Positions 7,673 to 26,325 are shown, numbered from the stretch's first letter. The stretch is DNA of 64,000 nucleotides from Thermoplasmata archaeon (GCA_027365105.1 DAHXNZ010000002.1:3672-67671); one strand, 5' to 3'. Program-made: numbers and translations. Notes: generated by a model not told the origin, from the sequence alone.

Positions 7673-8771
7673 AGCTGAACTGGCCGTAGACGCCGAGATC
7701 CCGGGCGATGCGGGCCGAGTCGCCCCCGGCCGCCACATGGACTCCGGGAGCCCCGGCGAGCGAGGCGAGGACGCTCCGGGTCCCCTCGGCAAACCGGGGA
7801 TCCTCGGCGAGGCCCAACGGACCGTTCCAGAAGACGGTCTTCGATCCGGCGATCGCCTCGGCGAACCGCCGGGCCGTCGCCGGCCCCACGTCGCGGGCCA
7901 GGACCCCCTCGGGCACCGCCTCGACCGGCACGGTTGAGACGCCCGGGCGGGCCGGATCCTCGACGACGAGATCGACCGGCAGGAGGACCCGGGTGCCGAG
8001 CCGGTCCGCCTCGGCCAGGAACTCGGCGACCGCCGCATCGAGCCCCGCCTCGACGGGTGTGGCGCCGAGCCGCGCGCCCCGGGCCGCGAGGAACGGGAAG
8101 GCGAGTGCCCCCCCGATCAGGAGCACCTGGGCCCGGCCGAGGAAGCTCGCGAGCAGTGGAAGCTTGTCCCGCACCTTCGCGCCGCCGACGATCGCCACGT
8201 AGGGGGGGGTCGGCCGATCCCGGAGCCGGGAGAGCTCGCGGACCTCACGGTCCAGCAGGAAACCGGCGAACGACGGCAGGTGCTTCGGCACCCCGACCGT
8301 CGAGGCGTGGGCCCGGTGGACGCTCCCGAACGCCTCCTCGACGAACAGGTCGCCCAGGCGGGCCAGCTGGCCCGCGAACGTCGGGTCGTTCGCCTCCTCG
8401 CCGGGGTGGAAGCGGAGGTTCTCGAGCATGAGGACGTCCGAGGGTTTCATCCGGGCCACCGCCTCGATCGCCTGGTAGCCGACGATGTCCTCGGCGAGCC
8501 CGACCGGCTGGCCGAGCAGGGCGCTCACCCGGTGGACGACCGGGCGCAACGAGAACCGGGGGTCCCGATGGCCGTTCGGCCGGCCGAGGTGGGTCATGAG
8601 GACCGTCTTGGCGCCGTGGGCCCGCAGGTGCTCGATCGTCGGCATGGCCTCGGCGATCCGGCGGTCGTCGGCGATCTGGCCGTTCGCGAGCTGCGGGACG
8701 TTGAAGTCGACCCGGACGAGGACCCGCCGGCCCCGGACCGGAGCATCGGCGACGGTGCGCTTCCCGGACAC
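7587..8771 (-). CDS. pgk: phosphoglycerate kinase
   Basis: VLVRVDFNVP...LENLRFHPGEEANDPTFA...FGSVHRAHAS...GGGA; canonical PGK motifs. The track ORF extends to 9164 through an R/S-rich junk N-terminus. Proposed GTG start at 8769-8771 (VSGKRTVADAPVRGRRVLVRVDFNVP) gives ~395 aa; exact start uncertain. Confidence 0.8.
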   Translation of the reverse strand: MSGKRTVADAPVRGRRVLVRVDFNVPQLANGQIADDRRIAEAMPTIEHLRAHGAKTVLMTHLGRPNGHRDPRFSLRPVVHRVSALLGQPVGLAEDIVGYQAIEAVARMKPSDVLMLENLRFHPGEEANDPTFAGQLARLGDLFVEEAFGSVHRAHASTVGVPKHLPSFAGFLLDREVRELSRLRDRPTPPYVAIVGGAKVRDKLPLLASFLGRAQVLLIGGALAFPFLAARGARLGATPVEAGLDAAVAEFLAEADRLGTRVLLPVDLVVEDPARPGVSTVPVEAVPEGVLARDVGPATARRFAEAIAGSKTVFWNGPLGLAEDPRFAEGTRSVLASLAGAPGVHVAAGGDSARIARDLGVYGQFSFISTGGGAALEFVEGESLPGLAVLPDAN

Positions 8772-11358: not shown

Positions 11359-13443
11359 ATGACGTCGCCGGGCCCGCTCGAAGAGTCGATGCGGCTCTTC
11401 CCGTACCGGGTCCGGCCCGGGCAGGAGCCGATCCTCGAGGCGGTCGCCGAGGTCGGCCGCCTCGGCGGCGCGCTCCTCCTCGACGCGGCGACCGGGAGCG
11501 GCAAGACGGTCGCGACCCTGGCCCCGCTGATCGACCACGCCGAAGCGGCCGAGCACCGCATCCTCTACCTGGTGCGGACCCACTCCCAGGAGGTCCAGGT
11601 GCTCCAGGAGGCCCGGGCCGTCGCCCGCCGGCTCGGCCACCCGATCCGGTCGGTGAGCCTCTCGGGCCGCTCCCGGCGCTGCCTGCTCCTCGAGAACGTC
11701 CGGGAGATGAAGGACGCCACCGCCGAGGAGCACGGCAAGCTCTGCGCCGACCGCAAGCGGGCCACCGAGCGCGGCCTCGCCGGGGATCTGACCGCCGCGT
11801 CGGCGGGGGAGCTTCCCGAGGGGGGCGCGATCGATCTCGTCGACCTGGACGGTTGCCCGTACTACGCCCGGGTCCTCCAGTCGGAGCTCGACGTGGTGGA
11901 GTCCCGGCTCGACTCGACGATGCCGACCCCGTCCGAGTTCGAGGAGTTCTGCCAGCGGGAGGACCTGTGCGCCTACGAGCTCGCGAAGCGGCTTTTGCCC
12001 GGCGCCCGGCTCGTGACCGCCCCCTACGCCTTCTTCTTCCACCCGTTCATCCGCACGGCGCTCCTCGGCTGGATGGGCACGACGCTCGACCGGCTTGACG
12101 TGGTCGTCGACGAGGCGCACAACCTGCCCGACTACCTGAGGGAGTCGTCGACCGTCGCGATCCCCCAGGTCTCGGTCCGGCGCGCCCGGCAGGAGATCGC
12201 CGACCGGGGCGACTTCCAGCTCCCCGACGGGCCGAGCGCCTCCCGGTTCCTCGAGGTCGCCGGCGCGGCGATCGAGGAATTGGTCGAGCAGCTCGCCCGC
12301 GACGACGACGGGATCCTGACCGACGGCATCTTCGAGGATGCGCTCCTCGCGGCCCTCGGCGGGACCTCCCACCGGTTCGACACCTGGCTCGGCGCGCTCG
12401 CGACCTGGGGGGAGAACCTCCGGGAGGAACGCCGCCGCGAGCGGCATCTCCCCCGCTCCTGGGTCCATTCGGTCGCGCTCGCGCTGCTCTCCTGGCCGCG
12501 GCTCGCCCCGCCCGAGTACGTCAAGCTCGCGACCCGCACCCCGAGGCCGGCGCTCGAGGCGTACCCGCTGGACGTCGGCGGGATGGCGGCGCCCCTCGCC
12601 GGCGCCCACCTCTCGATCCACCTCTCGGGAACCCTCGCCCCGCTCGAGGAGTACCGCGACGCGCTCGCGCTCGGCGAGCGGGCGCGGCTCCTGACCGTCC
12701 CGCCCCGGTTCCCCCCGGAGCACCGGCTCTGCCTCTACGACCCCTCGGTCACGACCCGCTTCCAGGACCTCGCCCGGGATCCGGCGGCGCTGCCCCACCT
12801 CGCCGACCGGGTCGCGTCGGTCGTCCGAGAGCTGCCGGTCAAGACCGCGATCTTCTTCCCGAGCTTCGACCTGATGGACCGGGTCCTCCAGGCCGGCCTC
12901 CAGGTGTCGCTGCCGGCGAACGCGGTCGTCGAGTCCCGGCGGCTCCCGATGGCCGACCTGTGGAGGTCGATCGACGGGATGCGCAAGGACCCCGACGGGA
13001 CCGTCCTCCTCGGGGTCACCGGCGGCCGCATCGCCGAGGGGATCGACTTTCCCGGGGAGGATCTCGAGGCGGTGGTCGTCGTCGGGATCCCCTACCCCAA
13101 GCCGACCGCGAAGCGGGAGGCGCTGCGCCGGTTCTGGGAGGCCCGCTCGGGCACCGGCTGGCAGTACGCCTTCGAGGCGCCCGCGCAGCGCGCGGTCCTC
13201 CAGGCGATCGGCCGGATGATCCGCTCGGAGAATGACCGGGGCATCGCGATCCTCCTCGACCGCCGGGCGGTCCGGTTCGGGGACGTCCTCCCCGGCCTCG
13301 CCCCGGTCGGCGACCTCGCCCGGACCGCCCGGGAGTTCTACGGGCCGAGGACCCGACGGCCGCGCCACCGGCCGAGGCTGCCGTCGGACGACCCGACGGC
13401 CGCCCGAACCGATAAATCCCCTCCGGCTCCAGGGGGGGCGTGA
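11359..13443 (+). CDS. xpd: XPD/Rad3-family ATP-dependent 5'-3' DNA helicase (DinG-like, FeS-cluster)
   Basis: Walker A LLLDAATGSGKTVATL, DEAH-box VVVDEAHNL, and four Cys in the FeS insertion (RRCLLLEN..KLCADRK..DGCPYY..DLCAYE). C-terminal helicase motifs present (..LLGVTGGRIAEGIDFPGEDLEAVVVVGIPYP..AIGRMIRSENDRGIAILLD). Low-complexity C-terminal tail. Confidence 0.8.
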   Translation: MTSPGPLEESMRLFPYRVRPGQEPILEAVAEVGRLGGALLLDAATGSGKTVATLAPLIDHAEAAEHRILYLVRTHSQEVQVLQEARAVARRLGHPIRSVSLSGRSRRCLLLENVREMKDATAEEHGKLCADRKRATERGLAGDLTAASAGELPEGGAIDLVDLDGCPYYARVLQSELDVVESRLDSTMPTPSEFEEFCQREDLCAYELAKRLLPGARLVTAPYAFFFHPFIRTALLGWMGTTLDRLDVVVDEAHNLPDYLRESSTVAIPQVSVRRARQEIADRGDFQLPDGPSASRFLEVAGAAIEELVEQLARDDDGILTDGIFEDALLAALGGTSHRFDTWLGALATWGENLREERRRERHLPRSWVHSVALALLSWPRLAPPEYVKLATRTPRPALEAYPLDVGGMAAPLAGAHLSIHLSGTLAPLEEYRDALALGERARLLTVPPRFPPEHRLCLYDPSVTTRFQDLARDPAALPHLADRVASVVRELPVKTAIFFPSFDLMDRVLQAGLQVSLPANAVVESRRLPMADLWRSIDGMRKDPDGTVLLGVTGGRIAEGIDFPGEDLEAVVVVGIPYPKPTAKREALRRFWEARSGTGWQYAFEAPAQRAVLQAIGRMIRSENDRGIAILLDRRAVRFGDVLPGLAPVGDLARTAREFYGPRTRRPRHRPRLPSDDPTAARTDKSPPAPGGA

Positions 13444-14417
13444 TCATCACCCAGACGCCGCTGCGGATCGGCCTCGCGGGTGGCGGGACCGACCTCCCGA
13501 CGTTCTACCGTGCCCACGGCGGGGGCGCGGTCGTCAACGCGGCGATCGACAAGTACATCCACGTCCTGGTCAACGCGAAGTTCGACCGCTCGATCCGCGT
13601 CGCCTACTCGAAGACCGAGAACGTCGCGCGGGTCGACGAGGTCCAGCACGCCCTGGTGCGCGAGGCGCTCCGGGCGACCGGGGTTGAGACCGGCGTCGAG
13701 CTCCACACGATCGCGGACATCCCGAGCGAAGGGACCGGGCTCGGCTCGTCGAGCACCCTCACGGTCGGCCTCCTGAACGCCCTCTACGCGTACCGGGGGG
13801 TCCTCAAGGACGCCCGGGAGCTCGCCGAGGAGGCGTGCCGGATCGAGATCGAGCGGCTCGGGGGCACGCTGGGCAAGCAGGACCAGTACATCGCCGCGCT
13901 CGGCGGGGTCCAGCTCCTCGAGTTCCGGCCCGACGACACGGTCCGCTCGACGCCGCTCCCGCTCTCGACCTCCGACCGGCTCGCGTTCGGCGAGCATCTC
14001 GGGCTCTTCTACACCGGCATCACCCGGAGCGCCCAGGGGATCCTCACCCGCCAGGACCGCCGGACCGGATCGAACCGGCCGACCCTCGAGGCGATGCGCG
14101 AGCTCGCCCCCGCGACCGCCCGGGCGATCACCGCCGGCCGTTGGGAGGAGTTCGGCCGGCTCCTGGACGAGGGCTGGCGGCTCAAGAAGGAGCTCTCCCC
14201 GGGGATCACCACCCCCGAGATCGACCGGGCCTACGCCGCGGCGAAGGCGGCCGGGGCGTGGGGCGGCAAGATCACCGGCGCCGGGGGCGGGGGGTTCCTC
14301 CTTGTCGTCCACCCCCCCGAACAAAGCCATCAAATAGCCCGGGCCCTAGAGCCGATGCAGCGCTGGCCGATCCGGATCGATCCGGCCGGCTCCCGGATCC
14401 TGTTCGTGGGCCGGTAG
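13440..14417 (+). CDS. GHMP-family sugar kinase, HddA-like (D-glycero-D-manno-heptose 7-phosphate kinase-like)
   Basis: N-terminus MIITQTPLRIGLAGGGTDLPTFY resembles the HddA-type motif (RxPxRIxxxGGGTDxP.Y). GHMP motif PSEGTGLGSSSTLTVGLLNAL and C-terminal GHMP_kinases_C ..GGKITGAGGGGFLLV. GTG start overlaps the xpd stop (GTGA). Confidence 0.7.
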   Translation: MIITQTPLRIGLAGGGTDLPTFYRAHGGGAVVNAAIDKYIHVLVNAKFDRSIRVAYSKTENVARVDEVQHALVREALRATGVETGVELHTIADIPSEGTGLGSSSTLTVGLLNALYAYRGVLKDARELAEEACRIEIERLGGTLGKQDQYIAALGGVQLLEFRPDDTVRSTPLPLSTSDRLAFGEHLGLFYTGITRSAQGILTRQDRRTGSNRPTLEAMRELAPATARAITAGRWEEFGRLLDEGWRLKKELSPGITTPEIDRAYAAAKAAGAWGGKITGAGGGGFLLVVHPPEQSHQIARALEPMQRWPIRIDPAGSRILFVGR

Positions 14418-14475: not shown

Positions 14476-15312
14476 GTGACGGTCACGGTCCGCGACTACA
14501 TGGTCCTCGCGGTCGAGCACGTCTTCCTCACCACGACGATCGGCGAAGCGACCGACCGGCTGGTCCGCAGCCGGCACCACGGATTCCCGGTGACCGACGC
14601 GCACGGCAAGCTGGTCGGCTTCGTGAGCTCGAAGGAGCTTCTCCGGCACCAGGCGGAGCGGAACCGGCCCCTCGCGGAGATCCTCCGGTCGGGCACCTAC
14701 ACCGCCGAGCCCGACACGGCGCTCGACGACGCCGCCCGGGTGATGTTCCGCTTCGGGCTGCGGGACCTGCCGATCGTCGACGCGGAGGGCCGGCTCTGCG
14801 GGGTGATCTCGAACCTCGACATCGTGCGCTCCCACTTCGAGCGGGCCTCCCCCCTCAAGGCCGACACCCTGCGGCGGCTGCTCACCGACCGCTACGGGAT
14901 GGGCTTCTCGATGCGCCGGGGGGTCGTCCCGATCCAGGATCTGCGGCCCACCCAGTGGAAGGTCTTCGAAGACGAGCTCGAGGGCCGGCGCTACGAGCTC
15001 GAACGCGGCTTCGCGGAGCCGGTCCTGGTCGTGGAGAAGGGGGGGCGCTGGCTGCTGGTCGACGGCCACCACCGGGCGCTCGCGGCCCGGGAGATGGGGC
15101 TCACCCGGCTCCAGGCGTTCATCCTGACCGCCGACCAGCCGGCCGAGTTCGAGCAGGTCGAGCTCGGGCTCGAGCGGACCGCGAAGGAGCGGCACCTGGA
15201 GAGCCTCGCCGACATCGAGATCGACCGGTCGATGCACCACCCGCTCGTCGAGGTCACGACCCAGCTCCTGCGACGCTTCGACGTGGCGGGGGGTCCGCCC
15301 CCGGTGCCCTGA
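14476..15312 (+). CDS. CBS-domain pair fused to ParB/Srx-like (ParBc) domain protein
   Basis: N-terminal tandem CBS-like segments (VRDYMVLAVEHVFLTTTIGEA.., ..LRDLPIVDAEGRLCGVISNLDIV). C-terminal ..PVLVVEKGGRWLLVDGHHRALAAREMGLTRLQAFIL matches the ParB N-terminal/sulfiredoxin fold (GxxR..A motif with HHR). Confidence 0.65.
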   Translation: MTVTVRDYMVLAVEHVFLTTTIGEATDRLVRSRHHGFPVTDAHGKLVGFVSSKELLRHQAERNRPLAEILRSGTYTAEPDTALDDAARVMFRFGLRDLPIVDAEGRLCGVISNLDIVRSHFERASPLKADTLRRLLTDRYGMGFSMRRGVVPIQDLRPTQWKVFEDELEGRRYELERGFAEPVLVVEKGGRWLLVDGHHRALAAREMGLTRLQAFILTADQPAEFEQVELGLERTAKERHLESLADIEIDRSMHHPLVEVTTQLLRRFDVAGGPPPVP

Positions 15313-15371
15313 GCCGGGATTCGTACATTATCCATATCAACGGCGCGTAGGTCGTGAAGGAAGGTCAACCG

Positions 15372-16412
15372 ATGCGGGGCGAGGGACGATGGGGCCGTCC
15401 CCTGCGGCGGGCGCTGCCGTGGGCCGTGGCCGCGCTGCTGGTCGCCGGGATCGGGCTCCCGATGGTGGCGGCGTCCAGCGGCAGCCTCCGGGCCGGCCCC
15501 GAGATCGGCTACGGCGTCGCCGTGACGCCGCCCATGGCCCACGTCAACGTGACGGTGGCGATGACCGATGCCCCCGCCTACCTCCCGAGCGCGATCACGG
15601 TCAACACGAGCACGATCCTGACCGTCCACCTGGTCAACCAGGGGAACCTGACCCACACCTTCACCGTCTCGAACGTCTCGGGGGCGGACGCGCTGCCGGC
15701 GAACTCGACCCCCCAGCAGGTCGATCGGTTCTTCAACCAGAACGGCAGCCGGGCGAATGTCTCCCTCGCCCCGGGGGCGACCGCGACGGTCAACCTGAGC
15801 TTCGGGGTCGACTCGGCGCTCGACGTCTTCCAGTTCGTGAGCGTCATCCCCTACCAGTTCCAGGCCGGCATGGCGGGGACGATCTCGGTCTCGGGCGGCC
15901 CGCCGAGCGTCCTCCTGGAGGACAATACCTCCGACGCGCTCCAGTTCCTTCCCAACACGCTCGTGGTCAACGTGACCCACTATCCGGTCGTCGTCGGGGT
16001 CGACGTCTCGAACCTCGGGAGCTTCTCCCACACCTTCACCGTCTCCGCCTTTTCCAACTTCAGCCTCTCCCCGGCCAACTTCACCTCCTTCTTCCAGTCC
16101 CACCCGCCGCTCGTCGACGCGCCGGTGCCGTCGGGCGCCGGCTCGTCGGTCTGGGCCAACTTCACGATCGCCCATGCGGGCGTCTACCAGTACATCTGCA
16201 CGGTGCCGGGCCACTTCGCCTCGGGAATGTACGGTTTCGTCTACGCGAACGTCGCGCCGCCGCCGCCCCCGGTCCCCCCGAGCACCGCGATCGTCCAGGG
16301 CTGGGTCCTGGTGGGCGCCGGTCTCCTTCTGGTCGTCGCGCTCCTGGTCGGATTGAGCGCCGCATACGTCGGCCGGCTGCCCCCGAAGCCCGTCGAGCTC
16401 CCCCACGAGTAG
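15372..16412 (+). CDS. membrane-anchored two-domain cupredoxin (blue copper protein, sulfocyanin/halocyanin-like), heavily N-glycosylation-sequon-rich
   Basis: Signal peptide (ALPWAVAALLVAGIGLPMVAASSG), two ..HTFTV.. cupredoxin cores, a type-1 copper site C-x-V-P-G-H-x4-M (YQYICTVPGHFASGMYG), and a C-terminal TM anchor (GWVLVGAGLLLVVALLVGLSAAYVG). At least 12 N-x-S/T sequons. ATG at 15372 preceded by GGAAGG; the track ORF begins at GTG 15354. Confidence 0.75.
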   Translation: MRGEGRWGRPLRRALPWAVAALLVAGIGLPMVAASSGSLRAGPEIGYGVAVTPPMAHVNVTVAMTDAPAYLPSAITVNTSTILTVHLVNQGNLTHTFTVSNVSGADALPANSTPQQVDRFFNQNGSRANVSLAPGATATVNLSFGVDSALDVFQFVSVIPYQFQAGMAGTISVSGGPPSVLLEDNTSDALQFLPNTLVVNVTHYPVVVGVDVSNLGSFSHTFTVSAFSNFSLSPANFTSFFQSHPPLVDAPVPSGAGSSVWANFTIAHAGVYQYICTVPGHFASGMYGFVYANVAPPPPPVPPSTAIVQGWVLVGAGLLLVVALLVGLSAAYVGRLPPKPVELPHE

Positions 16413-16462
16413 GGGACCGGGCGCCGAGGCCGGTTTATATTCCGGCGCCCCCTCTCCGGGGC

Positions 16463-17323
16463 ATGTGCCGATGGATTGGCCAGCTGGGCGACGACCGCGC
16501 CACCCTGGTCGACGATCTGGTCCACGCGCCGACGTCGCTCCTCCGGCTCTCCAACCTCCGGCCGACAGCCCTCCAGTCGGACGGCTGGGGGATCGCCTGG
16601 TGGGACCGCCGGCTCGGCCTCCAGCGAGTGGTCGGTACCGGTGGCGCCTACGAACCCGCCGAGTCGCCGAAGTTCCGGGCGACCGCGGAGAAGGCGCAGG
16701 GTCCGGTGATCGTCGGCCACCTGCGTCGGGCGAGCAACCCGATGGGCCGCCCGGCCGCCGAGCTGATCGGCGAGCCCAACAGCCAGCCGTTCGTGGAGGG
16801 ATCGTACATCTTTGCCCACAACGGCATGATCCTCCACCCCGAGACGACCCGCCGCCGGCTCGGGCGGTTCCGGGACCGGGTCCGCGGGGTGAACGACAGC
16901 GAGGTCCTCTTCTGGCTCCTGCGCGCCCACCTGGATTCGGACGACGACATCGTCTCGGCCTTCGGCCGGACGGTCGCCGATCTCTGGGACGACTGGCGCT
17001 CGGAGGGCTCGCCCACCGCCGGCCCGTACTCGGGACTCAATGTGCTGTGGACCCGGGGGACCGACGAGCTCTGGGCGTTCGGCCTCGCCCGAGGTGAGCA
17101 CGGTTCGGCCCTCGCCGACCCGGACCGACCGTACTACCGGCTCGCCTTCCGGGCCGAACCGGAACGGATCCGGGTCGCGAGCGAGCCGACCGACGGCCAG
17201 CCGGGCTGGGCGTCGCTCGACCATGGCCACTACCTCCATGCCCGGCGCTCCGCGTCGGGGGTCCGATGGGAGACCGGCCGGATCCCGGGGCTCGCCCCGG
17301 AAGCGCTCGCTTCGACCGCCTGA
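16463..17323 (+). CDS. class-II glutamine amidotransferase / Ntn-hydrolase, YafJ/EgtC-like
   Basis: Begins MCRWIGQLG (Met-Cys N-terminal nucleophile as in YafJ/EgtC MCR(L/H)LAYLG); GATase_6-like body (..VIVGHLRRASNPMG..FAHNGMI..). In-frame within the longer track ORF 15389-17323, whose upstream part overlaps the cupredoxin and is rejected. Confidence 0.65.
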   Translation: MCRWIGQLGDDRATLVDDLVHAPTSLLRLSNLRPTALQSDGWGIAWWDRRLGLQRVVGTGGAYEPAESPKFRATAEKAQGPVIVGHLRRASNPMGRPAAELIGEPNSQPFVEGSYIFAHNGMILHPETTRRRLGRFRDRVRGVNDSEVLFWLLRAHLDSDDDIVSAFGRTVADLWDDWRSEGSPTAGPYSGLNVLWTRGTDELWAFGLARGEHGSALADPDRPYYRLAFRAEPERIRVASEPTDGQPGWASLDHGHYLHARRSASGVRWETGRIPGLAPEALASTA

Positions 17324-18207
17324 TGCGCCGCCTGATCTCGGGCCCCGACCTCGGCGGAGGCTACCTCCACCAGCTGAGCCGGGATCTGGAGGACGGCCGG
17401 GAGGGGTTCACCCACCACGCCCAGGCGGGCGGCGACGACGCGGGCGGCCCCCCGATCGGCCCGCTCGACGATCTCGGCTTCGTCCACCCCCCGCAGCCGT
17501 GCATGTTCGGCGGGCCCCGGTGCTACCACCGGACCTACGCCCTGCCCGAGTCGGAGGCGGCCCGGGTCCGGGCCGCCTACCAGCGGTACCGCTTCGTCCT
17601 TTCGACCCTGCTCGCCCAGCGGTTCGCCGGTGCGGTGCCGTCGTCGGAATCCGGCTTGGCGGAGCTCCTCCGGGCCGTCCGGGAGCCGAGGGAGCGGGAA
17701 GGGCCGGGGTGGTATCTTGTCGGGGCGGCTTCGGCCTGGCTCCAGGGCGCCGGGCCTCCGCCCGAGACGATCCGGATCGGCGGAACGGAACCGGCCGGTG
17801 CCCGGCTGGCCGAACGGCTGCGGGAGTATCTCATCGAACCCTGGGCGCCGACCGAATGGTCCGGTCGGCCGTTCCGCGCCGCCGCCCGGGCCTTCCTGGG
17901 CACCCCGAAAGAAGGTATCCGGGCCGAGTGGGGAGTGCCGGCCGCCCCGCGGCCCGGCGACGTGGGGGAGCTCGGCGAGTACGGCGAGGAGGTCCGGATC
18001 CGCCTGGTCGAGTTCGGCGGCCACCGGATCCCGGTGAGCCGCCTCGAGTACGGCTGGGTGGCGGCGTTCCGGGACCGGCGCCCAGCGGAGCTCCGCCGGC
18101 TCGCCGACCGGATCCCGCCGGAGGAGGTCGACCCGCAGTGGCTGGCCGAGCTCGGCCGACGGATCGGGTGGAGCGGCGATCCCCGTCGGTGGATCCATCC
18201 CCGGTGA
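17323..18207 (+). CDS. hypothetical protein, translationally coupled to the amidotransferase
   Basis: ATG at 17323 overlaps the upstream TGA (TGATG). 294 aa with protein-like composition (WYLVGAASAWLQG.., ..RIRLVEFGGHRIPVSRLEYGWVAAF..); no family recognised. Confidence 0.45.
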   Translation: MRRLISGPDLGGGYLHQLSRDLEDGREGFTHHAQAGGDDAGGPPIGPLDDLGFVHPPQPCMFGGPRCYHRTYALPESEAARVRAAYQRYRFVLSTLLAQRFAGAVPSSESGLAELLRAVREPREREGPGWYLVGAASAWLQGAGPPPETIRIGGTEPAGARLAERLREYLIEPWAPTEWSGRPFRAAARAFLGTPKEGIRAEWGVPAAPRPGDVGELGEYGEEVRIRLVEFGGHRIPVSRLEYGWVAAFRDRRPAELRRLADRIPPEEVDPQWLAELGRRIGWSGDPRRWIHPR

Positions 18208-18278
18208 GCCGGCCCGCTCCGCGGAGGGCTTCGATTGGACCCCTACCTTCATAGCCCTCCCCGGCCGAGGCTCCGCCG

Positions 18279-19118
18279 ATGATCGCCCAACCGAGCCCGG
18301 CCGCACTGGAACCGCTCTCGCCGCACGACCTGGTGAACTACTACCGCTGCCCTCACGAGATGGAGCTCCACCGGGTCCGTGTCGACAGCCTCCATCACCA
18401 CGGTCCGGCGGTGGCCCGGACCCCGCCGGATGTGGTGCCGATCCCCCGCTCCCCCCTCATCTCGCCGCCGCTGAGCGGCGTGCAGGTCAACGACGGACGG
18501 CTCGACATCTTCGACGGCGACCGGCTGATCTACGCCGATGAGGCGGAGAAGGACCTGCCGGTGCTCTTTCCTTCGGAGCATGTGACCCTGGACCCTCGGT
18601 TCGTCGGGAGCCAGGCGAACCTCGTCGACCCCGAGCTCCAGCTCCACGGCCGCCCCGACTTCGTGATCCGACGGGCGAACGGGAACCTCGTCCCGGTCGA
18701 GTACAAGGCGACCCACCTCTTCGTCGGCTACCACGAAGCCCACGGCCGGCTCTTCGACACCATCCAGGCGATCGCCGAGTGCCGTCTGGTCGAGGCGGCG
18801 TTCGGCCGCCGGCCCTTGAGCGCGATCGTCCACTACGGCGACCAGACCGGCAGCGGGACCCGGGAGGGCTGGGTCGAGATCCCGTACACGGAGGCCGACG
18901 AGCGGTGGCTCCGCTTCGCCCTCGGGCAGATCCGATCGGACCTGATCCGGGCCCCGGTCACGAACGGCCGGATCTGCGCGAGCTGCGAGGCCAACGAACA
19001 GGGGCTCTGCCGCTACGCCGGCGCCCGGTTCGAAGGTGCCCACCACCACCTGACGAAGCTCTTCGATTCCGCCGGGAACGGTCCGGCGTTGGCCGCCCCT
19101 CGGTTCGGCGGTCGGTGA
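18279..19118 (+). CDS. Cas4-like / RecB-family PD-(D/E)XK nuclease with 4-Cys cluster (DUF83-like), stand-alone
   Basis: N-terminal Cys in YYRCPHE, motif II GRPDFVI, motif III VPVEYKAT (E-x-K), QAIAEC, and a C-terminal C-x2-C-x6-C (CASCEANEQGLC), the arrangement seen in Cas4/AddB-type nucleases. No cas1/cas2 or repeats nearby. Confidence 0.6.
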   Translation: MIAQPSPAALEPLSPHDLVNYYRCPHEMELHRVRVDSLHHHGPAVARTPPDVVPIPRSPLISPPLSGVQVNDGRLDIFDGDRLIYADEAEKDLPVLFPSEHVTLDPRFVGSQANLVDPELQLHGRPDFVIRRANGNLVPVEYKATHLFVGYHEAHGRLFDTIQAIAECRLVEAAFGRRPLSAIVHYGDQTGSGTREGWVEIPYTEADERWLRFALGQIRSDLIRAPVTNGRICASCEANEQGLCRYAGARFEGAHHHLTKLFDSAGNGPALAAPRFGGR

Positions 19119-19181: not shown

Positions 19182-22100
19182 ATGGGGCGCCGGAGAGACC
19201 CCGGGGCGCACCGGGCGGGACGATCGGGAAGGATCGCGCTCCTCGGCCTCGTGGTCTTCGTCCTGGTGAGCGCCTCGCTGGTCGTCCCGGAAAACATTCC
19301 GGGGGCCGTTTTGGGCCCGTCGGAAGGCTCGACCCTCTCGGCGGCTCCCTCCCCGGCCCCGAGCTCCTCGCTCGGCTCGAGCGGCTCCTTCTCGGTCGAG
19401 ACCACCACGGTGCTGGCCAACCAGACCACGCTACCGGGGAACTTCCTCGCCTCGAACGGCATCGCGCCGGACGCGACGGCCTACGATCCCAACAGTTCGA
19501 CCCTCTGGGTCGCGAACGGGGGATCCGGCACGGTCTCGGTGATCAACCTCACCCTCGGCGGGGTGGTCGCCGTCGTCCCGGTGGGCAGCGACCCGACGGC
19601 CCTGCTCTACGATTCGGGCGTGGACCGGGTCTTCGTCGTCAACGAGTTTTCCTACAACGTGAGCGTGATCGACGCGTCGAGCTTCCGCGTCGTGGGCTCG
19701 ATCCCGGTCTCCCTCGCCCCCCTCGCCCTGGCGCTCGATCCGGCGCACCAGACGCTCTACGTGGTCAACTCGAACTACTCCGCCCAATCCGGCCCCGGTA
19801 CCCTCCCCGGCAATGGGAGCCTGACCTGGGTGAACGCCTCGACGCTGGCCGTCGGAGGCAACCTCTCCGTGGGCAAGATCCCGACCGACGCCCTCTACGG
19901 CCCCGGGGGGGATCTCTACGCGGTCGCGCTGGGCTCCTGCCGGCTCTCGACGATCGACCCGGCCAATGACTCGGTCCTGGCCAACGTCTCCCTTCCCGCC
20001 GGAACCTGCGGCGCGGGACGGCCGGTGGGCTGCCCATACTCCGTCAACCCGCTCCCGGGCTCCGCCACCCTGGCGTACGACGCGTCCAACGGGCTCCTCT
20101 ACGTCGGGGTCACGAACATCCGGACCCCCTGCAACTATACGAACTCGGTCGAGGCGTACGACCTCGCGAACGACTCCTGGGTCTACGGCCGGACGGTCCC
20201 CCTCGGGGATGCCGGATTCGGGAACTCGACCCTCGCCCAGATCGCCTACGACCCGGAGATCCCCGCGATCCTCGCCGAGTTCTCCGGCAATGGGAGTGTC
20301 GGGCGCGTGGCCGCGCTCGACCCGGCCGGCCTCGCCACGATCGGGATCCGCTCGATCAACGGCACGGTCTTCGGGCTCCACTACTCGGCCGGCCTTCGGC
20401 AGGTCCTCTGGGCCAACAGTCTCACGGGCCGGGTCACCCGGGCGAACTCCACCACCCTCGATCCCGTGACCCGGTACGCCGTCGGGACCAATCCGGTCGC
20501 CCTCGTCGCCGCGCCCGAGCTGGGCGTGGTGGCCGTGGCCGAATACGCCCAGAACTCGGTCGTCCTCCTGAACGCGACCCAGGGCCGCGTGGTCGGCGAG
20601 TGGCCGGTCGGACGGGAACCCAGCGCGGTCGCCTACGATCCCCAGACGGAGGAACTCGCCGTGGCGAACAGCGGATCCGGCAACCTGACGATCCTCAACC
20701 TGAGCCTCGGTCAGGCGGTGGCGACGGTGCCGATCGGGGGCGAACCCTCCGGGGTCGCCTACGACCGCGCGAACGGCTCGTGGTGGGTCTCCGGCGGGAA
20801 CTCGGGCACCGTCACCGAGATCTCGGTCGCGACCTCCCGGGTCCAGCGGATCGTGCCGGTCGACCCGTCGGCGGTCCTCTCCGGCCTGGCGATCGACTCG
20901 AGGACCGATTCGGTCTACGTCGGACTCCTCACGAACTCCACCGTGGCGGTGGTCAACGCGAGTTCGGGCGCCGTCGAGGCGCTGATCCCCGTCGGGTTGG
21001 CCCCGTCGAGCCTGGCCTATGTGCCGGCGGACGGTGCGGTCTTCGTCGCCAACGCGGGCTCGGGCAACCTCAGCGTGGTGAACGACACCGCGCTCAACGT
21101 GACCAACTCGATCCCGGTGCCCAACCTGCCCCTCTCCGTGGGGTACGACCCCGCGCAGGGCGTGATCCTGGCGGCCCAGTACGGGACCGGCTCCCTGGCC
21201 GTCGTCAGCGTCGCGTTCCAGTCGGTCCAGGGCTTCCTGGAGGTCGGGGCCGGCCCGAGCGGCGTCGCCAGCGACCCGGCGACCGGCGAGGTCTTCATCG
21301 CCAACGCGAACAGCGGCACCGTCTCGACGGTCGGCGTCCGCGGGTTCCCGGTCGAGGTGAACGAGAGCGGGCTGCCCGCGAACTCCACCTGGTGGCTGAA
21401 CCTCACAGGCGGCGCCCACGTGTCGGCCTCCGTTTCCAGCCTGAGCCTCTCCCTCATCAACGGGACCTACGCCTACTCGGCGAGCACGAGCACGCCGGGC
21501 TACGCGGCCAGTCCGGGATTCTTCATCGTCCATGGGGGTCCGGTCCAAGTCCAAGTGACCTTCGCCCCGGCCACCAGCCCGGTCACCTTCGATGCGGTCG
21601 GGCTTCCGGCCGGGACCCCCTGGTTCGTCAACCTGAGCGGAGGGGAGAGCGGCTCGACCCGGGGCACCGCCCTGACCTTCAACCTGACCAACGGAAGCTA
21701 CACCTACGCCGTGGAGACTCCCGATCGGTCGTACGCGCCGTCCCCGGCGTCGGGGCGGCTCCTCGTCCAGGGGAGCCTCCTCGGGGTGGAGGTCCGCTTC
21801 TCCCTCGTCACCTCCCCGGTCATCTTCCAGGAGACCGGGCTGCCCCACGGGACCGTGTGGTATGTGGCGACCGCCGGAGACCGGTTCACCGACAACCGCA
21901 GTTCCATGGCGGCCGGCCTGCCCAACGGGACCTACCGCTACACCGCCGGCACCGCCAACTCGAGCTACCGGGCGGCCGGCGGGGGCTTCACGGTCGACGG
22001 ATCCCCGGTCGAGGTCAACATCAGTTTTTCGCTCGTGGTCTTCTCGGTCGTCATCGCCCAGAGCGGCCTCCCCAACGGGACCGCCTGGTCGGTCGTCATC

Positions 22101-22394
22101 CAAGGACAGACGCTCGTCTCCCGGAACGGCACGGCCCAGATCGAGCTCCCGAACGGGAGCTACGCTTTCCGCCTCGACGCGCCGCCGGGCTACACGGCGG
22201 TGCCCGGGAACGGGACGATTTCGGTCGCCGGGAGCCCGGTCCTCCGCGCCGTCTCCTTCTCGGCCAATGGGGCGTCGTCCTCGACCCGGCTCTACCTGAT
22301 CGGGGGCGTGGCGGTCGCGGCCTTTGCGGCCGGCACGATCATCTTCCTGATCGGGCGCCGTCGCCATCCCCGGCCGCCCGTCGAACCCAAATAG
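19182..22394 (+). CDS. large surface protein: N-terminal signal/TM, YVTN-family beta-propeller repeats, five ~95-aa Ig-like repeats, C-terminal TM anchor
   Basis: Repeated ..VYVVNSNYS.., ..VAVANSGSGNLTILNLS.., ..VFVANAGSGNLSVVNDT.., ..VFIANANSGTVSTVGV.. (YVTN/lactonase-type blades). C-terminal tandem units GLPxGTxWxVxLxGG...NGTYxY...V.F (x5). Final LYLIGGVAVAAFAAGTIIFLIGRRRHPRPP anchor; dozens of N-x-S/T sequons. Confidence 0.75.
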   Translation: MGRRRDPGAHRAGRSGRIALLGLVVFVLVSASLVVPENIPGAVLGPSEGSTLSAAPSPAPSSSLGSSGSFSVETTTVLANQTTLPGNFLASNGIAPDATAYDPNSSTLWVANGGSGTVSVINLTLGGVVAVVPVGSDPTALLYDSGVDRVFVVNEFSYNVSVIDASSFRVVGSIPVSLAPLALALDPAHQTLYVVNSNYSAQSGPGTLPGNGSLTWVNASTLAVGGNLSVGKIPTDALYGPGGDLYAVALGSCRLSTIDPANDSVLANVSLPAGTCGAGRPVGCPYSVNPLPGSATLAYDASNGLLYVGVTNIRTPCNYTNSVEAYDLANDSWVYGRTVPLGDAGFGNSTLAQIAYDPEIPAILAEFSGNGSVGRVAALDPAGLATIGIRSINGTVFGLHYSAGLRQVLWANSLTGRVTRANSTTLDPVTRYAVGTNPVALVAAPELGVVAVAEYAQNSVVLLNATQGRVVGEWPVGREPSAVAYDPQTEELAVANSGSGNLTILNLSLGQAVATVPIGGEPSGVAYDRANGSWWVSGGNSGTVTEISVATSRVQRIVPVDPSAVLSGLAIDSRTDSVYVGLLTNSTVAVVNASSGAVEALIPVGLAPSSLAYVPADGAVFVANAGSGNLSVVNDTALNVTNSIPVPNLPLSVGYDPAQGVILAAQYGTGSLAVVSVAFQSVQGFLEVGAGPSGVASDPATGEVFIANANSGTVSTVGVRGFPVEVNESGLPANSTWWLNLTGGAHVSASVSSLSLSLINGTYAYSASTSTPGYAASPGFFIVHGGPVQVQVTFAPATSPVTFDAVGLPAGTPWFVNLSGGESGSTRGTALTFNLTNGSYTYAVETPDRSYAPSPASGRLLVQGSLLGVEVRFSLVTSPVIFQETGLPHGTVWYVATAGDRFTDNRSSMAAGLPNGTYRYTAGTANSSYRAAGGGFTVDGSPVEVNISFSLVVFSVVIAQSGLPNGTAWSVVIQGQTLVSRNGTAQIELPNGSYAFRLDAPPGYTAVPGNGTISVAGSPVLRAVSFSANGASSSTRLYLIGGVAVAAFAAGTIIFLIGRRRHPRPPVEPK

Positions 22395-22415: not shown

Positions 22416-23066
22416 GTGCCCGGAGCGCCCGCCTCGAGGTACGTGGTCGGAGGACCCTTCCCACGGGCCCGGGACGCCGCTGTTCCGTCCCCCCTCAGCG
22501 CCGCCGGGGAACTCCGGGTCTCCTGGAGCTGGCACGACCTTGCGGGAGGACTCGTCGCGTGGAGCTTCGAGAACCCGGGGAGCCAGCCGAAGACCGGGCT
22601 GCTCCTCCGCAACGGCTACTATTTCGGCAACGCCTTCTGGCCGGTCTACCTCGCCCATCCGTCGTTCCGGACCCGGTGGGCGACCGCGCTCGCACCGCTC
22701 GTCGATCAGGGCGTCGGGGCGAATGCCGCCCCGCTCGGGCTGGTCGAGTTTCCGGCCGGACGCCGGATCGTGGCGTTCCTCTTTACGCTCGCCGCCCGCT
22801 CGACCTGGTCGATCCTCGAGGGGGGCTTTTCCTCCGCCCAGCCCCCCCAGGGCGCCGGGATCGTGCCGGTCGACCTTCGGCGGGCGGGCGACTTCTGCAT
22901 CGGCTACGACCCGGCCCAAGTGACCGCCTGGGACCAGCAGACCGGCACCCGGCTCGGCGGCACTTCCCCCAACCCGTCCACGGTCGTGACGGTCGAGGTC
23001 GCCCCGACCGGGGCGGCGCCGTTCGTCCAGCTCTACCCCGACCCGATTGCGGTCGGCCGCTGCTGA
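22416..23066 (+). CDS. hypothetical protein
   Basis: 216-aa ORF with protein-like composition (W/Y/F, ..LLLRNGYYFGNAFWPVYLAHPSFRTRW..), preferred over the overlapping R/S-rich ORF 22405-22923. No family recognised. Confidence 0.35.
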   Translation: MPGAPASRYVVGGPFPRARDAAVPSPLSAAGELRVSWSWHDLAGGLVAWSFENPGSQPKTGLLLRNGYYFGNAFWPVYLAHPSFRTRWATALAPLVDQGVGANAAPLGLVEFPAGRRIVAFLFTLAARSTWSILEGGFSSAQPPQGAGIVPVDLRRAGDFCIGYDPAQVTAWDQQTGTRLGGTSPNPSTVVTVEVAPTGAAPFVQLYPDPIAVGRC

Positions 23067-23368: not shown

Positions 23369-23394
23369 GACGCTTGTCGAACGTCAGAAGTGTA

Positions 23395-26325
<2,931 letters not shown>

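Follow-up and report, generated by a model that had tools for sequence, protein, structure and literature searches.

A compact five-gene cluster in a Thermoplasmata archaeon is probably the junction of two conserved chromosomal blocks, one of which carries an amidotransferase gene coupled to that of a nucleotidyltransferase-fold protein

Between positions 14476 and 19118 of a 64,000-nucleotide (nt) stretch of DNA from a Thermoplasmata archaeon (GCA_027365105.1, DAHXNZ010000002.1:3672-67671; this whole stretch is hereafter called the window), five consecutive genes of the plus strand form what looks like a compact cluster of unusual composition. They encode a fusion of CBS and ParB-like domains (CBS-ParB), a two-domain cupredoxin, an amidotransferase of the YafJ/EgtC type (GAT), a protein of 294 amino acids (P4) and a Cas4-like nuclease. 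Comparison with related genomes leads us to think that the cluster probably marks the place where two chromosomal blocks, each conserved independently of the other, meet: block A, which closes with the CBS-ParB and cupredoxin genes, and block B, in which a GAT-P4 operon precedes a separately promoted solo Cas4 gene. The seam between them arose by rearrangement in the window's own clade, which also lacks the ferredoxin, SIS and 328-amino-acid membrane-protein genes of block A and the pair of IscA-type genes of block B. The lineage concerned consists of uncultured high-GC Thermoplasmata, and the window's relatives come from mine-drainage, soil and peat metagenomes.

The evidence comes from two sets of loci. 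A profile of P4 homologues gave 80 loci in 80 species-level Thermoplasmata genomes (GTDB), with 125 candidates confirmed overall, and these genome loci were probed by tblastn with nine proteins of the window; the second set, again of 80 loci, was drawn from metagenome contigs with the help of a CBS-ParB profile. The GAT, P4 and Cas4-like genes follow one another in this order and on one strand in essentially every one of the 80 genome loci. The sequence-only reading of the window had noted the coupling of the amidotransferase with the 294-amino-acid protein, and this coupling is borne out: all the loci examined keep the pair, and nearly all have the Cas4-like gene next after it; the exceptions are contigs that end early and three loci (L049, L059 and L079) with an insert of 4-9 kilobases (kb) ahead of the Cas4-like gene. 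The genes for malate dehydrogenase, an XPD helicase, a GHMP kinase, CBS-ParB and the cupredoxin, on the other hand, lie beside this trio in L001 and L002 only, i.e. in the two closest relatives (83-95% identity), and in the remaining 78 genome loci neither CBS-ParB nor the cupredoxin ever comes closer to the trio than 10 kb. The metagenome loci give the reciprocal picture: L088, which is 93% identical to the window, alone runs on into GAT, P4 and the Cas4-like gene, and none of the remaining 79 contains the trio. The five-gene adjacency, when checked in relatives, is thus not conserved beyond the nearest of them. That CBS-ParB and the cupredoxin join the trio in these three loci only supports one of the two possibilities raised by the sequence-only reading, a mosaic of unrelated housekeeping genes.

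Upstream regions were also aligned between loci, the transcription units being deduced from sequence alone, and TATA-type elements were found inside the cluster, before the cupredoxin, GAT and Cas4-like genes, which speaks against a single transcription unit. Ahead of GAT, a TATA box (TTTATATT, 16434-16441, plus strand) stands 22-29 nt before the start codon; a TTATCTA/TTTATAT-like box about 30 nt before the ATG is found in 76 of 77 loci, and six or more of its eight positions are A or T in 76/77 loci, as against 4% of coding-sequence windows. Since a box at this distance from the ATG is the archaeal leaderless pattern, the GAT-P4 transcript would be leaderless or nearly so. The interval from the GAT stop codon to the SGPDLG motif of P4 measures 14-62 nt, i.e. 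about 0-45 nt of true spacer. This spacer is GC-rich, with the AT content of the coding background (3 of 71 reach 6/8 A+T); a GGAGG-like motif is frequent in it, and the two genes overlap in four loci, the window included, where the stop of GAT and the start of P4 have one base in common (TGATG). In three species (L029, L040 and L051) the two genes lie 470-610 nt further apart, and this additional stretch may contain a small gene.

Ahead of the Cas4-like gene, a TATA-like box TTCATAG (18248-18254, plus strand) is located 31 nt before the start codon, and 58 of the 61 loci have a TTCATAG-like heptamer between -29 and -32 relative to the ATG, compared with 18 of 3850 coding windows (0.5%). This conservation argues that the Cas4-like gene has its own promoter. 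Upstream of the cupredoxin gene is a non-coding 23-nt element, ATTCGTACATTATCCATATCAAC (15319-15341, plus strand), the consensus of which, ATTCGTACA[CT]TATCCATATCAAC, is nearly invariant in 25 of the 26 loci with a locatable cupredoxin N-terminus. Across loci L088-L160, the proteins of which share no more than 40-54% identity, it is far better conserved than a plain TATA box. It probably combines a promoter with an operator, and the operator may serve a copper- or oxygen-responsive regulator. No AT-rich box was seen in the 58-nt gap ahead of CBS-ParB. A scan for sigma-70 promoters and intrinsic terminators returned nothing above chance, the model being inapplicable to an archaeon. The units would then be GHMP kinase with CBS-ParB (perhaps together with XPD), the cupredoxin, GAT-P4, the Cas4-like gene and the 23S ribosomal RNA (rRNA) gene further downstream, and of these only GAT-P4 looks like an operon.

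What had made the cluster attractive at first sight carries less information than it seems. The five open reading frames (ORFs) do exist on the plus strand, as the sequence and the public gene calls for the same contig agree, their lengths match these calls, and the domains assigned to CBS-ParB, the cupredoxin, the amidotransferase and the Cas4-like protein in the sequence-only reading hold. The run of plus-strand genes is much longer than five, however, extending from malate dehydrogenase (start at about 10345) to past 23 kb, and co-orientation is therefore uninformative. The borders of the cluster, where a compositional shift had been suggested as a check, show none: G+C is about 72% in the window and stays at 70-75% over 5-23 kb. 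An island of distinct GC or codon composition was accordingly discarded, the profile being flat over the region.

GAT (16463-17323, plus strand, 286 amino acids) is a stand-alone class-II (Ntn) glutamine amidotransferase-type hydrolase of the YafJ/EgtC branch (GATase_4, 31.2 versus 23 bits). Its closest PDB entries are 3mdn (E=1.7e-8) and EgtC, 4zfj, with which it has in common a single Ntn-hydrolase domain, a cysteine nucleophile right after the initiator methionine, and the glutamyl-binding arginine, asparagine-glycine and aspartate. The protein begins Met-Cys; the start reads ATG TGY in the window, as it does in each of the 77 loci with a located GAT start, this motif being the one used to locate it. 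Among 74 orthologues, Cys2, GWG, HLR88, N92, NSQPF, HNG121 and DSE147 are invariant, and so is the glutamine-binding set R88, N120-G121 and D145; the roles of these motifs are presumed from analogy with PurF, GlmS and EgtC. Unlike EgtC and YafJ, GAT is paired with a nucleotidyltransferase-fold protein and has no ergothioneine genes nearby. That it could be EgtC itself was rejected, the score against TIGR03442 being 70.6 versus 218.65 bits and egtA, egtB, egtD and egtE being absent from the neighbourhoods.

P4 (17323-18207, plus strand) matched no family in Pfam/NCBIfam-type hidden Markov model (HMM) scans, and searches of the PDB with the single sequence returned nothing; the matches described here came from structure comparison and from a profile of the family. 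The predicted structure (pLDDT 90.7, pTM 0.89) has two domains. The C-terminal 170 residues or so form a minimal nucleotidyltransferase of the TM1012/MenT-like type (Foldseek against the PDB; 2ewr, 8an4). The likeness to TM1012-like and MenT/AbiEii nucleotidyltransferases is one of fold, and for TM1012 homology of this part is also detectable in sequence, the family profile matching it with E=6e-11. The N-terminal domain, of about 100 residues, consists of a three-stranded beta-meander with Cys/His-rich loops and a first helix bearing arginine and tyrosine residues; no convincing match to it was found among solved structures. This domain, which is unique to P4 and sets it apart from TM1012 and MenT, is also the more conserved of the two: S6-G13, Q17, H32, Q34, D39, C60, C67, R83, Y86, R88 and R90 are 100% invariant in 76 orthologues. 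In the nucleotidyltransferase domain, most orthologues keep the hG[GS] motif, the DxD motif (68-69 of 76) and the third carboxylate. The window's clade has lost DxD; the window's P4 reads T149-I-R151 and G134-A135 and keeps E172 alone, and its nucleotidyltransferase site is predicted to be inactive. P4 further differs from MenT/AbiEii proteins in being operon-linked to an amidotransferase, outside any toxin-antitoxin context.

Among the 1.84 billion representatives searched, the two-domain form of P4 was confined to this lineage (about 51 of them at E<1e-30), and the N-terminal domain had no relative outside the family. More distant matches cover the nucleotidyltransferase part alone, and those examined are bacterial proteins, either stand-alone or fused to RNase III, a P-loop kinase or GNAT. 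Three stand-alone relatives (P0163, P0165 and P0167) lie on short bacterial contigs, the context of which is uninformative. Three apparent fusions were read directly and none of them supports a GAT-P4 fusion: in P0116 (481 amino acids) and P0172 (423 amino acids) the added length is Arg/Pro-rich sequence read in the wrong frame, as is typical of gene calls at high GC, and the joining of RibF to P4 in P0103, which lies on a contig of 2 kb, is probably an artefact of assembly.

Gene content, folds, the conservation of catalytic residues, synteny statistics and promoter elements are observed; beyond them, we infer that GAT and P4 might associate physically as a two-subunit enzyme. GAT has all the catalytic residues for cleaving glutamine or a gamma-glutamyl amide. 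One possibility is that it would hand ammonia to a substrate bound by P4 and, in most species, activated by P4 through nucleotidyl transfer; another is that it would strip a gamma-glutamyl group from a P4-bound substrate. In the window's clade, P4 would work only through its invariant N-terminal domain, its nucleotidyltransferase site being presumably dead. The presence of such a site beside an intact GAT implies that nucleotidyl transfer would not be essential to the conserved role of the pair and that the N-terminal domain would have to be involved. A functional analogy, and only that, is provided by GlmS, PurF and AsnB, where an Ntn glutaminase works together with another catalytic module, the one to which the activated acceptor binds. 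In these enzymes the modules are fused domains, whereas GAT and P4 would be two translationally coupled subunits, and their interaction and any ammonia channel are hypothetical. We know of no amidotransferase that uses a pol-beta-type nucleotidyltransferase fold as its acceptor module.

The Cas4-like protein (18279-19118, plus strand, 279 amino acids) has a PD-(D/E)XK core with the D...ExK signature and four cysteines (C24, C233, C236 and C244), and is predicted to carry a 4Fe-4S cluster. Its last three cysteines are spaced CX2CX7C, whereas the usual Cas4 spacing is CX2CX5C. Structure comparison matches its fold to Cas4/Cas1, type I-C Cas4, ACE1, Exo5, MGME1 and Dna2. Sequence methods identify a divergent member (TIGR00372, 17.7 versus 65 bits; best E=2e-6 with the generic Cas4 model of PADLOC), there was no Pfam match, and neither the single sequence nor a profile matched a PDB entry. 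The 64-kb window contains no CRISPR array and the neighbourhoods examined contain no cas genes, and the protein is therefore a solo Cas4 rather than the Cas4 of an adaptation module. Solo Cas4 proteins, present in most archaeal genomes, are vertically inherited and have no known function (PMC5704561, Hudaiberdiev et al. 2017). The distribution of the Cas4-like gene likewise appears vertical and consistent with the lineage. With the described solo Cas4 proteins (PMC5704561) the window's protein has in common the PD-(D/E)XK core, D...ExK and the arrangement of one N-terminal and three C-terminal cysteines; unlike them, it has an additional invariant cysteine, C168, an N-terminal insertion of about 100 residues and a fixed place, with the GAT-P4 operon on one side and a 23S rRNA gene on the other. 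Its own promoter and its occasional separation from P4 by inserts argue that it is an independent unit, and it would most likely be an independent housekeeping DNA nuclease that processes 5' ends.

The flanks of the trio are also well conserved. Directly upstream of GAT, a divergent pair of IscA-type Fe-S carrier genes was found in 64 of the 66 loci with enough flank, and downstream of the Cas4-like gene a 23S rRNA gene on the same strand was found in 38 of 41, at a distance of 127-305 nt in 27 of them; downstream flanks are short because many contigs break at the 23S gene (L003-L078). In the window this gene (23389-26321, plus strand; Rfam LSU_rRNA_archaea, 2643 bits) is unlinked, no 16S rRNA or tRNA gene accompanying it in the 64 kb. 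It is separated there from the Cas4-like gene, in an arrangement seen in the window only, by the gene for a secreted or membrane-anchored beta-propeller protein of 1070 amino acids (19182-22394), with YncE/lactonase-like repeats and many N-glycosylation sequons, and by an ORF of 216 amino acids (22416-23066). Some other peculiarities of this block may be mentioned. The inserts between P4 and the Cas4-like gene in L049 (10900-15000), L059 (10880-16680) and L079 amount to 4-9 kb; mobile-element genes were sought in the first two and none was recognised, only a glycosyltransferase (GT1/GT4, encoded in L049). In L081, two features of the distal IscA-like protein (8117-8563, minus strand) are unusual for A-type carriers, a Gly/Cys-rich insertion and the tail GGGCGCGSGGCGCG at its C-terminus. 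In L082 (5873-8009), a phage-type integrase gene and several small ORFs lie just past the IscA pair, beside an apparent tRNA gene, and this integrase suggests that the upstream edge of block B is an integration hot spot.

Block A has an identity of its own. The order malate dehydrogenase, ferredoxin, XPD, GHMP kinase, SIS, CBS-ParB, membrane protein (the one of 328 amino acids), cupredoxin, in which the membrane protein is not constant, recurs in most of the 80 metagenome loci, and the XPD and GHMP kinase genes are kept with CBS-ParB in about 70 of 79. Around two distant CBS-ParB orthologues the order is PGK/ApbA (on the minus strand), malate dehydrogenase, ferredoxin, XPD, GHMP kinase, SIS and CBS-ParB, the HddA-like GHMP kinase, GmhA-like SIS and CBS-ParB genes overlapping by 4 nt each (L086, 6425-8846; L087, 6425-8843). 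Such overlaps suggest an operon that would link a protein of ParB-CTPase fold to heptose-phosphate metabolism. In the window, the XPD/Rad3-type helicase gene (11359-13443, plus strand; Pfam DEAD_2, HBB and Helicase_C_2) and the gene for a GHMP kinase resembling D-glycero-D-manno-heptose-7-phosphate kinase (13440-14417, plus strand; GHMP_kinases_N and _C; NCBIfam HddA-like, E=1e-46 and under the cut-off) overlap by GTGA. The helicase matches the PADLOC 'type IV-A DinG' model with E=4e-86 outside any CRISPR-Cas context; this model evidently picks up housekeeping archaeal XPD as well.

CBS-ParB (14476-15312, plus strand, 278 amino acids in the public call) is the final gene of this XPD-GHMP-(SIS)-CBS/ParB unit. 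The CBS pair is recognised with E=6e-20. The second half gives sub-threshold HMM matches only (ParBc_2, and a weak one to TIGR00180), with PF02195 on some homologues and an invariant DGHHRALAA motif, and a ParB/Srx (ParB-CTPase) fold is plausible for it. The protein is 72-77% identical over the lineage, with 2116 matches, and would probably be an NTP-binding protein that senses adenine nucleotides. CBS-ParB fusions of archaea have been described as chromosomal and vertically inherited (PMC12704722), and the window's protein resembles them in these respects as well as in its CBS pair and, plausibly, its ParB/Srx-type NTP-binding fold. That survey found the fusion mainly in Methanobacteriota and Haloarchaea (PMC12704722), whereas the window belongs to Thermoplasmata; a further difference from the description given there is the translational coupling of the gene, in relatives, with GHMP kinase and SIS genes that resemble those of the heptose pathway. 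The conserved partners of CBS-ParB are thus the heptose-kinase-like GHMP kinase and the GmhA-like SIS protein, not nuclease or amidotransferase genes.

The cupredoxin, encoded by the last gene of block A (15354-16412, plus strand, from a GTG; the public call starts at ATG 15372 and gives 346 amino acids), is a membrane-anchored protein of two domains with many N-x-S/T sequons. The type-1 copper ligands (His ... Cys-x4-His-x4-Met) are in the second domain (Pfam Copper-bind, 35.6 bits versus a cut-off of 21.2) and the first has none. In most block A loci, homologues with 40-54% identity come after CBS-ParB and the membrane protein, and in one relative the gene is near those for COX2 and Rieske/cytochrome b. 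The protein would probably be a membrane-anchored blue-copper electron carrier of respiration, a role with which the type-1 site and the nearby COX2 and Rieske/cytochrome b genes are consistent. Sulfocyanin, rusticyanin and halocyanin, the archaeal membrane type-1 copper proteins, are similar in their C-terminal cupredoxin domain, in the His/Cys/His/Met ligands, in anchoring and, for the relative just mentioned, in proximity to COX2 and Rieske/cytochrome b; the ligand-less N-terminal cupredoxin-like domain is an addition in the window's protein, which scores far under the cut-off of all NCBIfam equivalogs.

How far, then, could the neighbourhood still represent a functional system? The boldest proposal, the other possibility of the sequence-only reading, was that all five genes together encode a new system, equipped with a membrane redox component, for targeting or modifying nucleic acids. 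The common strand, the short gaps and the meeting of two nuclease-superfamily folds with one redox protein speak in its favour, but we now regard it as highly improbable: only two of the 80 genome loci and one of the 80 metagenome loci have the arrangement, all of them in near relatives; CBS-ParB and the cupredoxin belong to another conserved block with other transcription signals; and the cupredoxin, GAT and Cas4-like genes each stand behind a conserved promoter of their own. That reading had itself pointed to unconserved adjacency and separate promoters as signs against a system, and this is largely what we found, to the detriment of the five-gene system and with the GAT/P4 coupling left standing. 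Nor is a defence role indicated, since PADLOC gave four matches, each to a single protein and none defining a multi-gene system: the generic Cas4 and DinG/XPD matches already cited, a weak one of CBS-ParB to a Type II methyltransferase model (E=0.013) and a weak one of GAT to a Cas6 model (E=0.0017). A more restricted version hardly deserves credit either. In it, a nucleotidyltransferase toxin of the MenT/AbiEii type would be the basis of a toxin-antitoxin or defence pair formed by GAT and P4, and the Cas4-like gene would belong to a defence island. P4 has no PADLOC match at all, the fold is the point of resemblance, and the pair occupies a fixed chromosomal place between conserved flanks in every locus recovered, with no mobile-element context and a distribution that is uniform and vertical, not patchy. 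No AbiEi or MenA-type partner is present, the neighbours being GAT, IscA and the Cas4-like gene; GAT is a fully conserved enzyme and not a small antitoxin; and about 10% of P4 proteins have no catalytic site while the gene pair is retained.

A three-gene module is harder to dismiss. GAT, P4 and the Cas4-like protein, possibly with the IscA carriers, could be one lineage-specific module of nucleic-acid repair, processing or modification, in which ends of DNA or RNA would be the target of the nucleotidyltransferase and the Fe-S nuclease, while an amide group would be supplied or removed by the amidotransferase. At least 72 of 80 species have the three genes in the same order and on the same strand although protein identity is only 42-65%, the arrangement was retained after the upstream rearrangement in the window's clade, IscA genes are adjacent and the Cas4-like protein is a predicted Fe-S protein, and the trio is directly upstream of a 23S rRNA gene. 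MenT1, the closest characterised structural relative of the P4 fold, acts on tRNA. Against this module stand the conserved promoter of the Cas4-like gene, the unrelated DNA, including a glycosyltransferase gene, that parts it from P4 in three loci, and the fact that solo Cas4 is widespread in archaea without such partners (PMC5704561). Moreover, the heterogeneous block A is syntenic over the same divergence, and adjacency in this lineage is therefore weak evidence for shared function. We consider the module unlikely on balance. We would give slightly less credit to a more specific form, in which GAT-P4 would be a new two-subunit amidotransferase, made of an Ntn glutaminase and a pol-beta-fold nucleotidyltransferase with an undescribed Cys/His domain, joined by the solo Cas4 and IscA on a nucleic-acid or glycan substrate near the 23S locus; if true, this would amount to a pathway of modification or processing specific to the lineage, whose chemistry would be new for enzymes of the nucleotidyltransferase fold.

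Several points also weigh against the reading that we prefer, i.e. the junction of two blocks with a GAT-P4 operon and an independent Cas4. The promoters are deduced from conserved sequence only, and read-through transcription is possible. The general synteny of the lineage is strong, and its depth limits adjacency statistics both ways. Adjacency within the trio is very strongly conserved and has outlived the loss of the usual upstream neighbours, so that a functional link could include the Cas4-like gene. The interaction of GAT with P4 is our own proposal rather than an experimental or structural result. Finally, the loss of DxD from the window's P4 beside an intact GAT opposes a simple scheme in which the nucleotidyltransferase activates and GAT amidates, at least in this genome.

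The main value of the analysis is corrective: what appears to be a tidy cluster of odd domains is a lineage-specific junction of synteny blocks, and should not be catalogued as a candidate system. The lesson extends to the lineage as a whole. A heterogeneous block of eight genes, from malate dehydrogenase to the cupredoxin, is syntenic in it, and adjacency there is correspondingly poor evidence for function. Every component of the cluster falls in a known superfamily; only the N-terminal domain of P4 and the pairing of an Ntn amidotransferase with a nucleotidyltransferase-fold protein appear to be undescribed. Three leads come out of it, namely the lineage-restricted GAT-P4 operon, present in at least 125 species-level genomes, the solo Cas4 gene that keeps its place just ahead of an unlinked 23S rRNA gene, and the CBS-ParB gene with its translational coupling to genes like those of the heptose pathway. 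The GAT-P4 operon with the solo Cas4 beside it is of moderate interest to specialists; all three leads are reasonable targets for the biochemistry of Thermoplasmata, though none comes as a great surprise.

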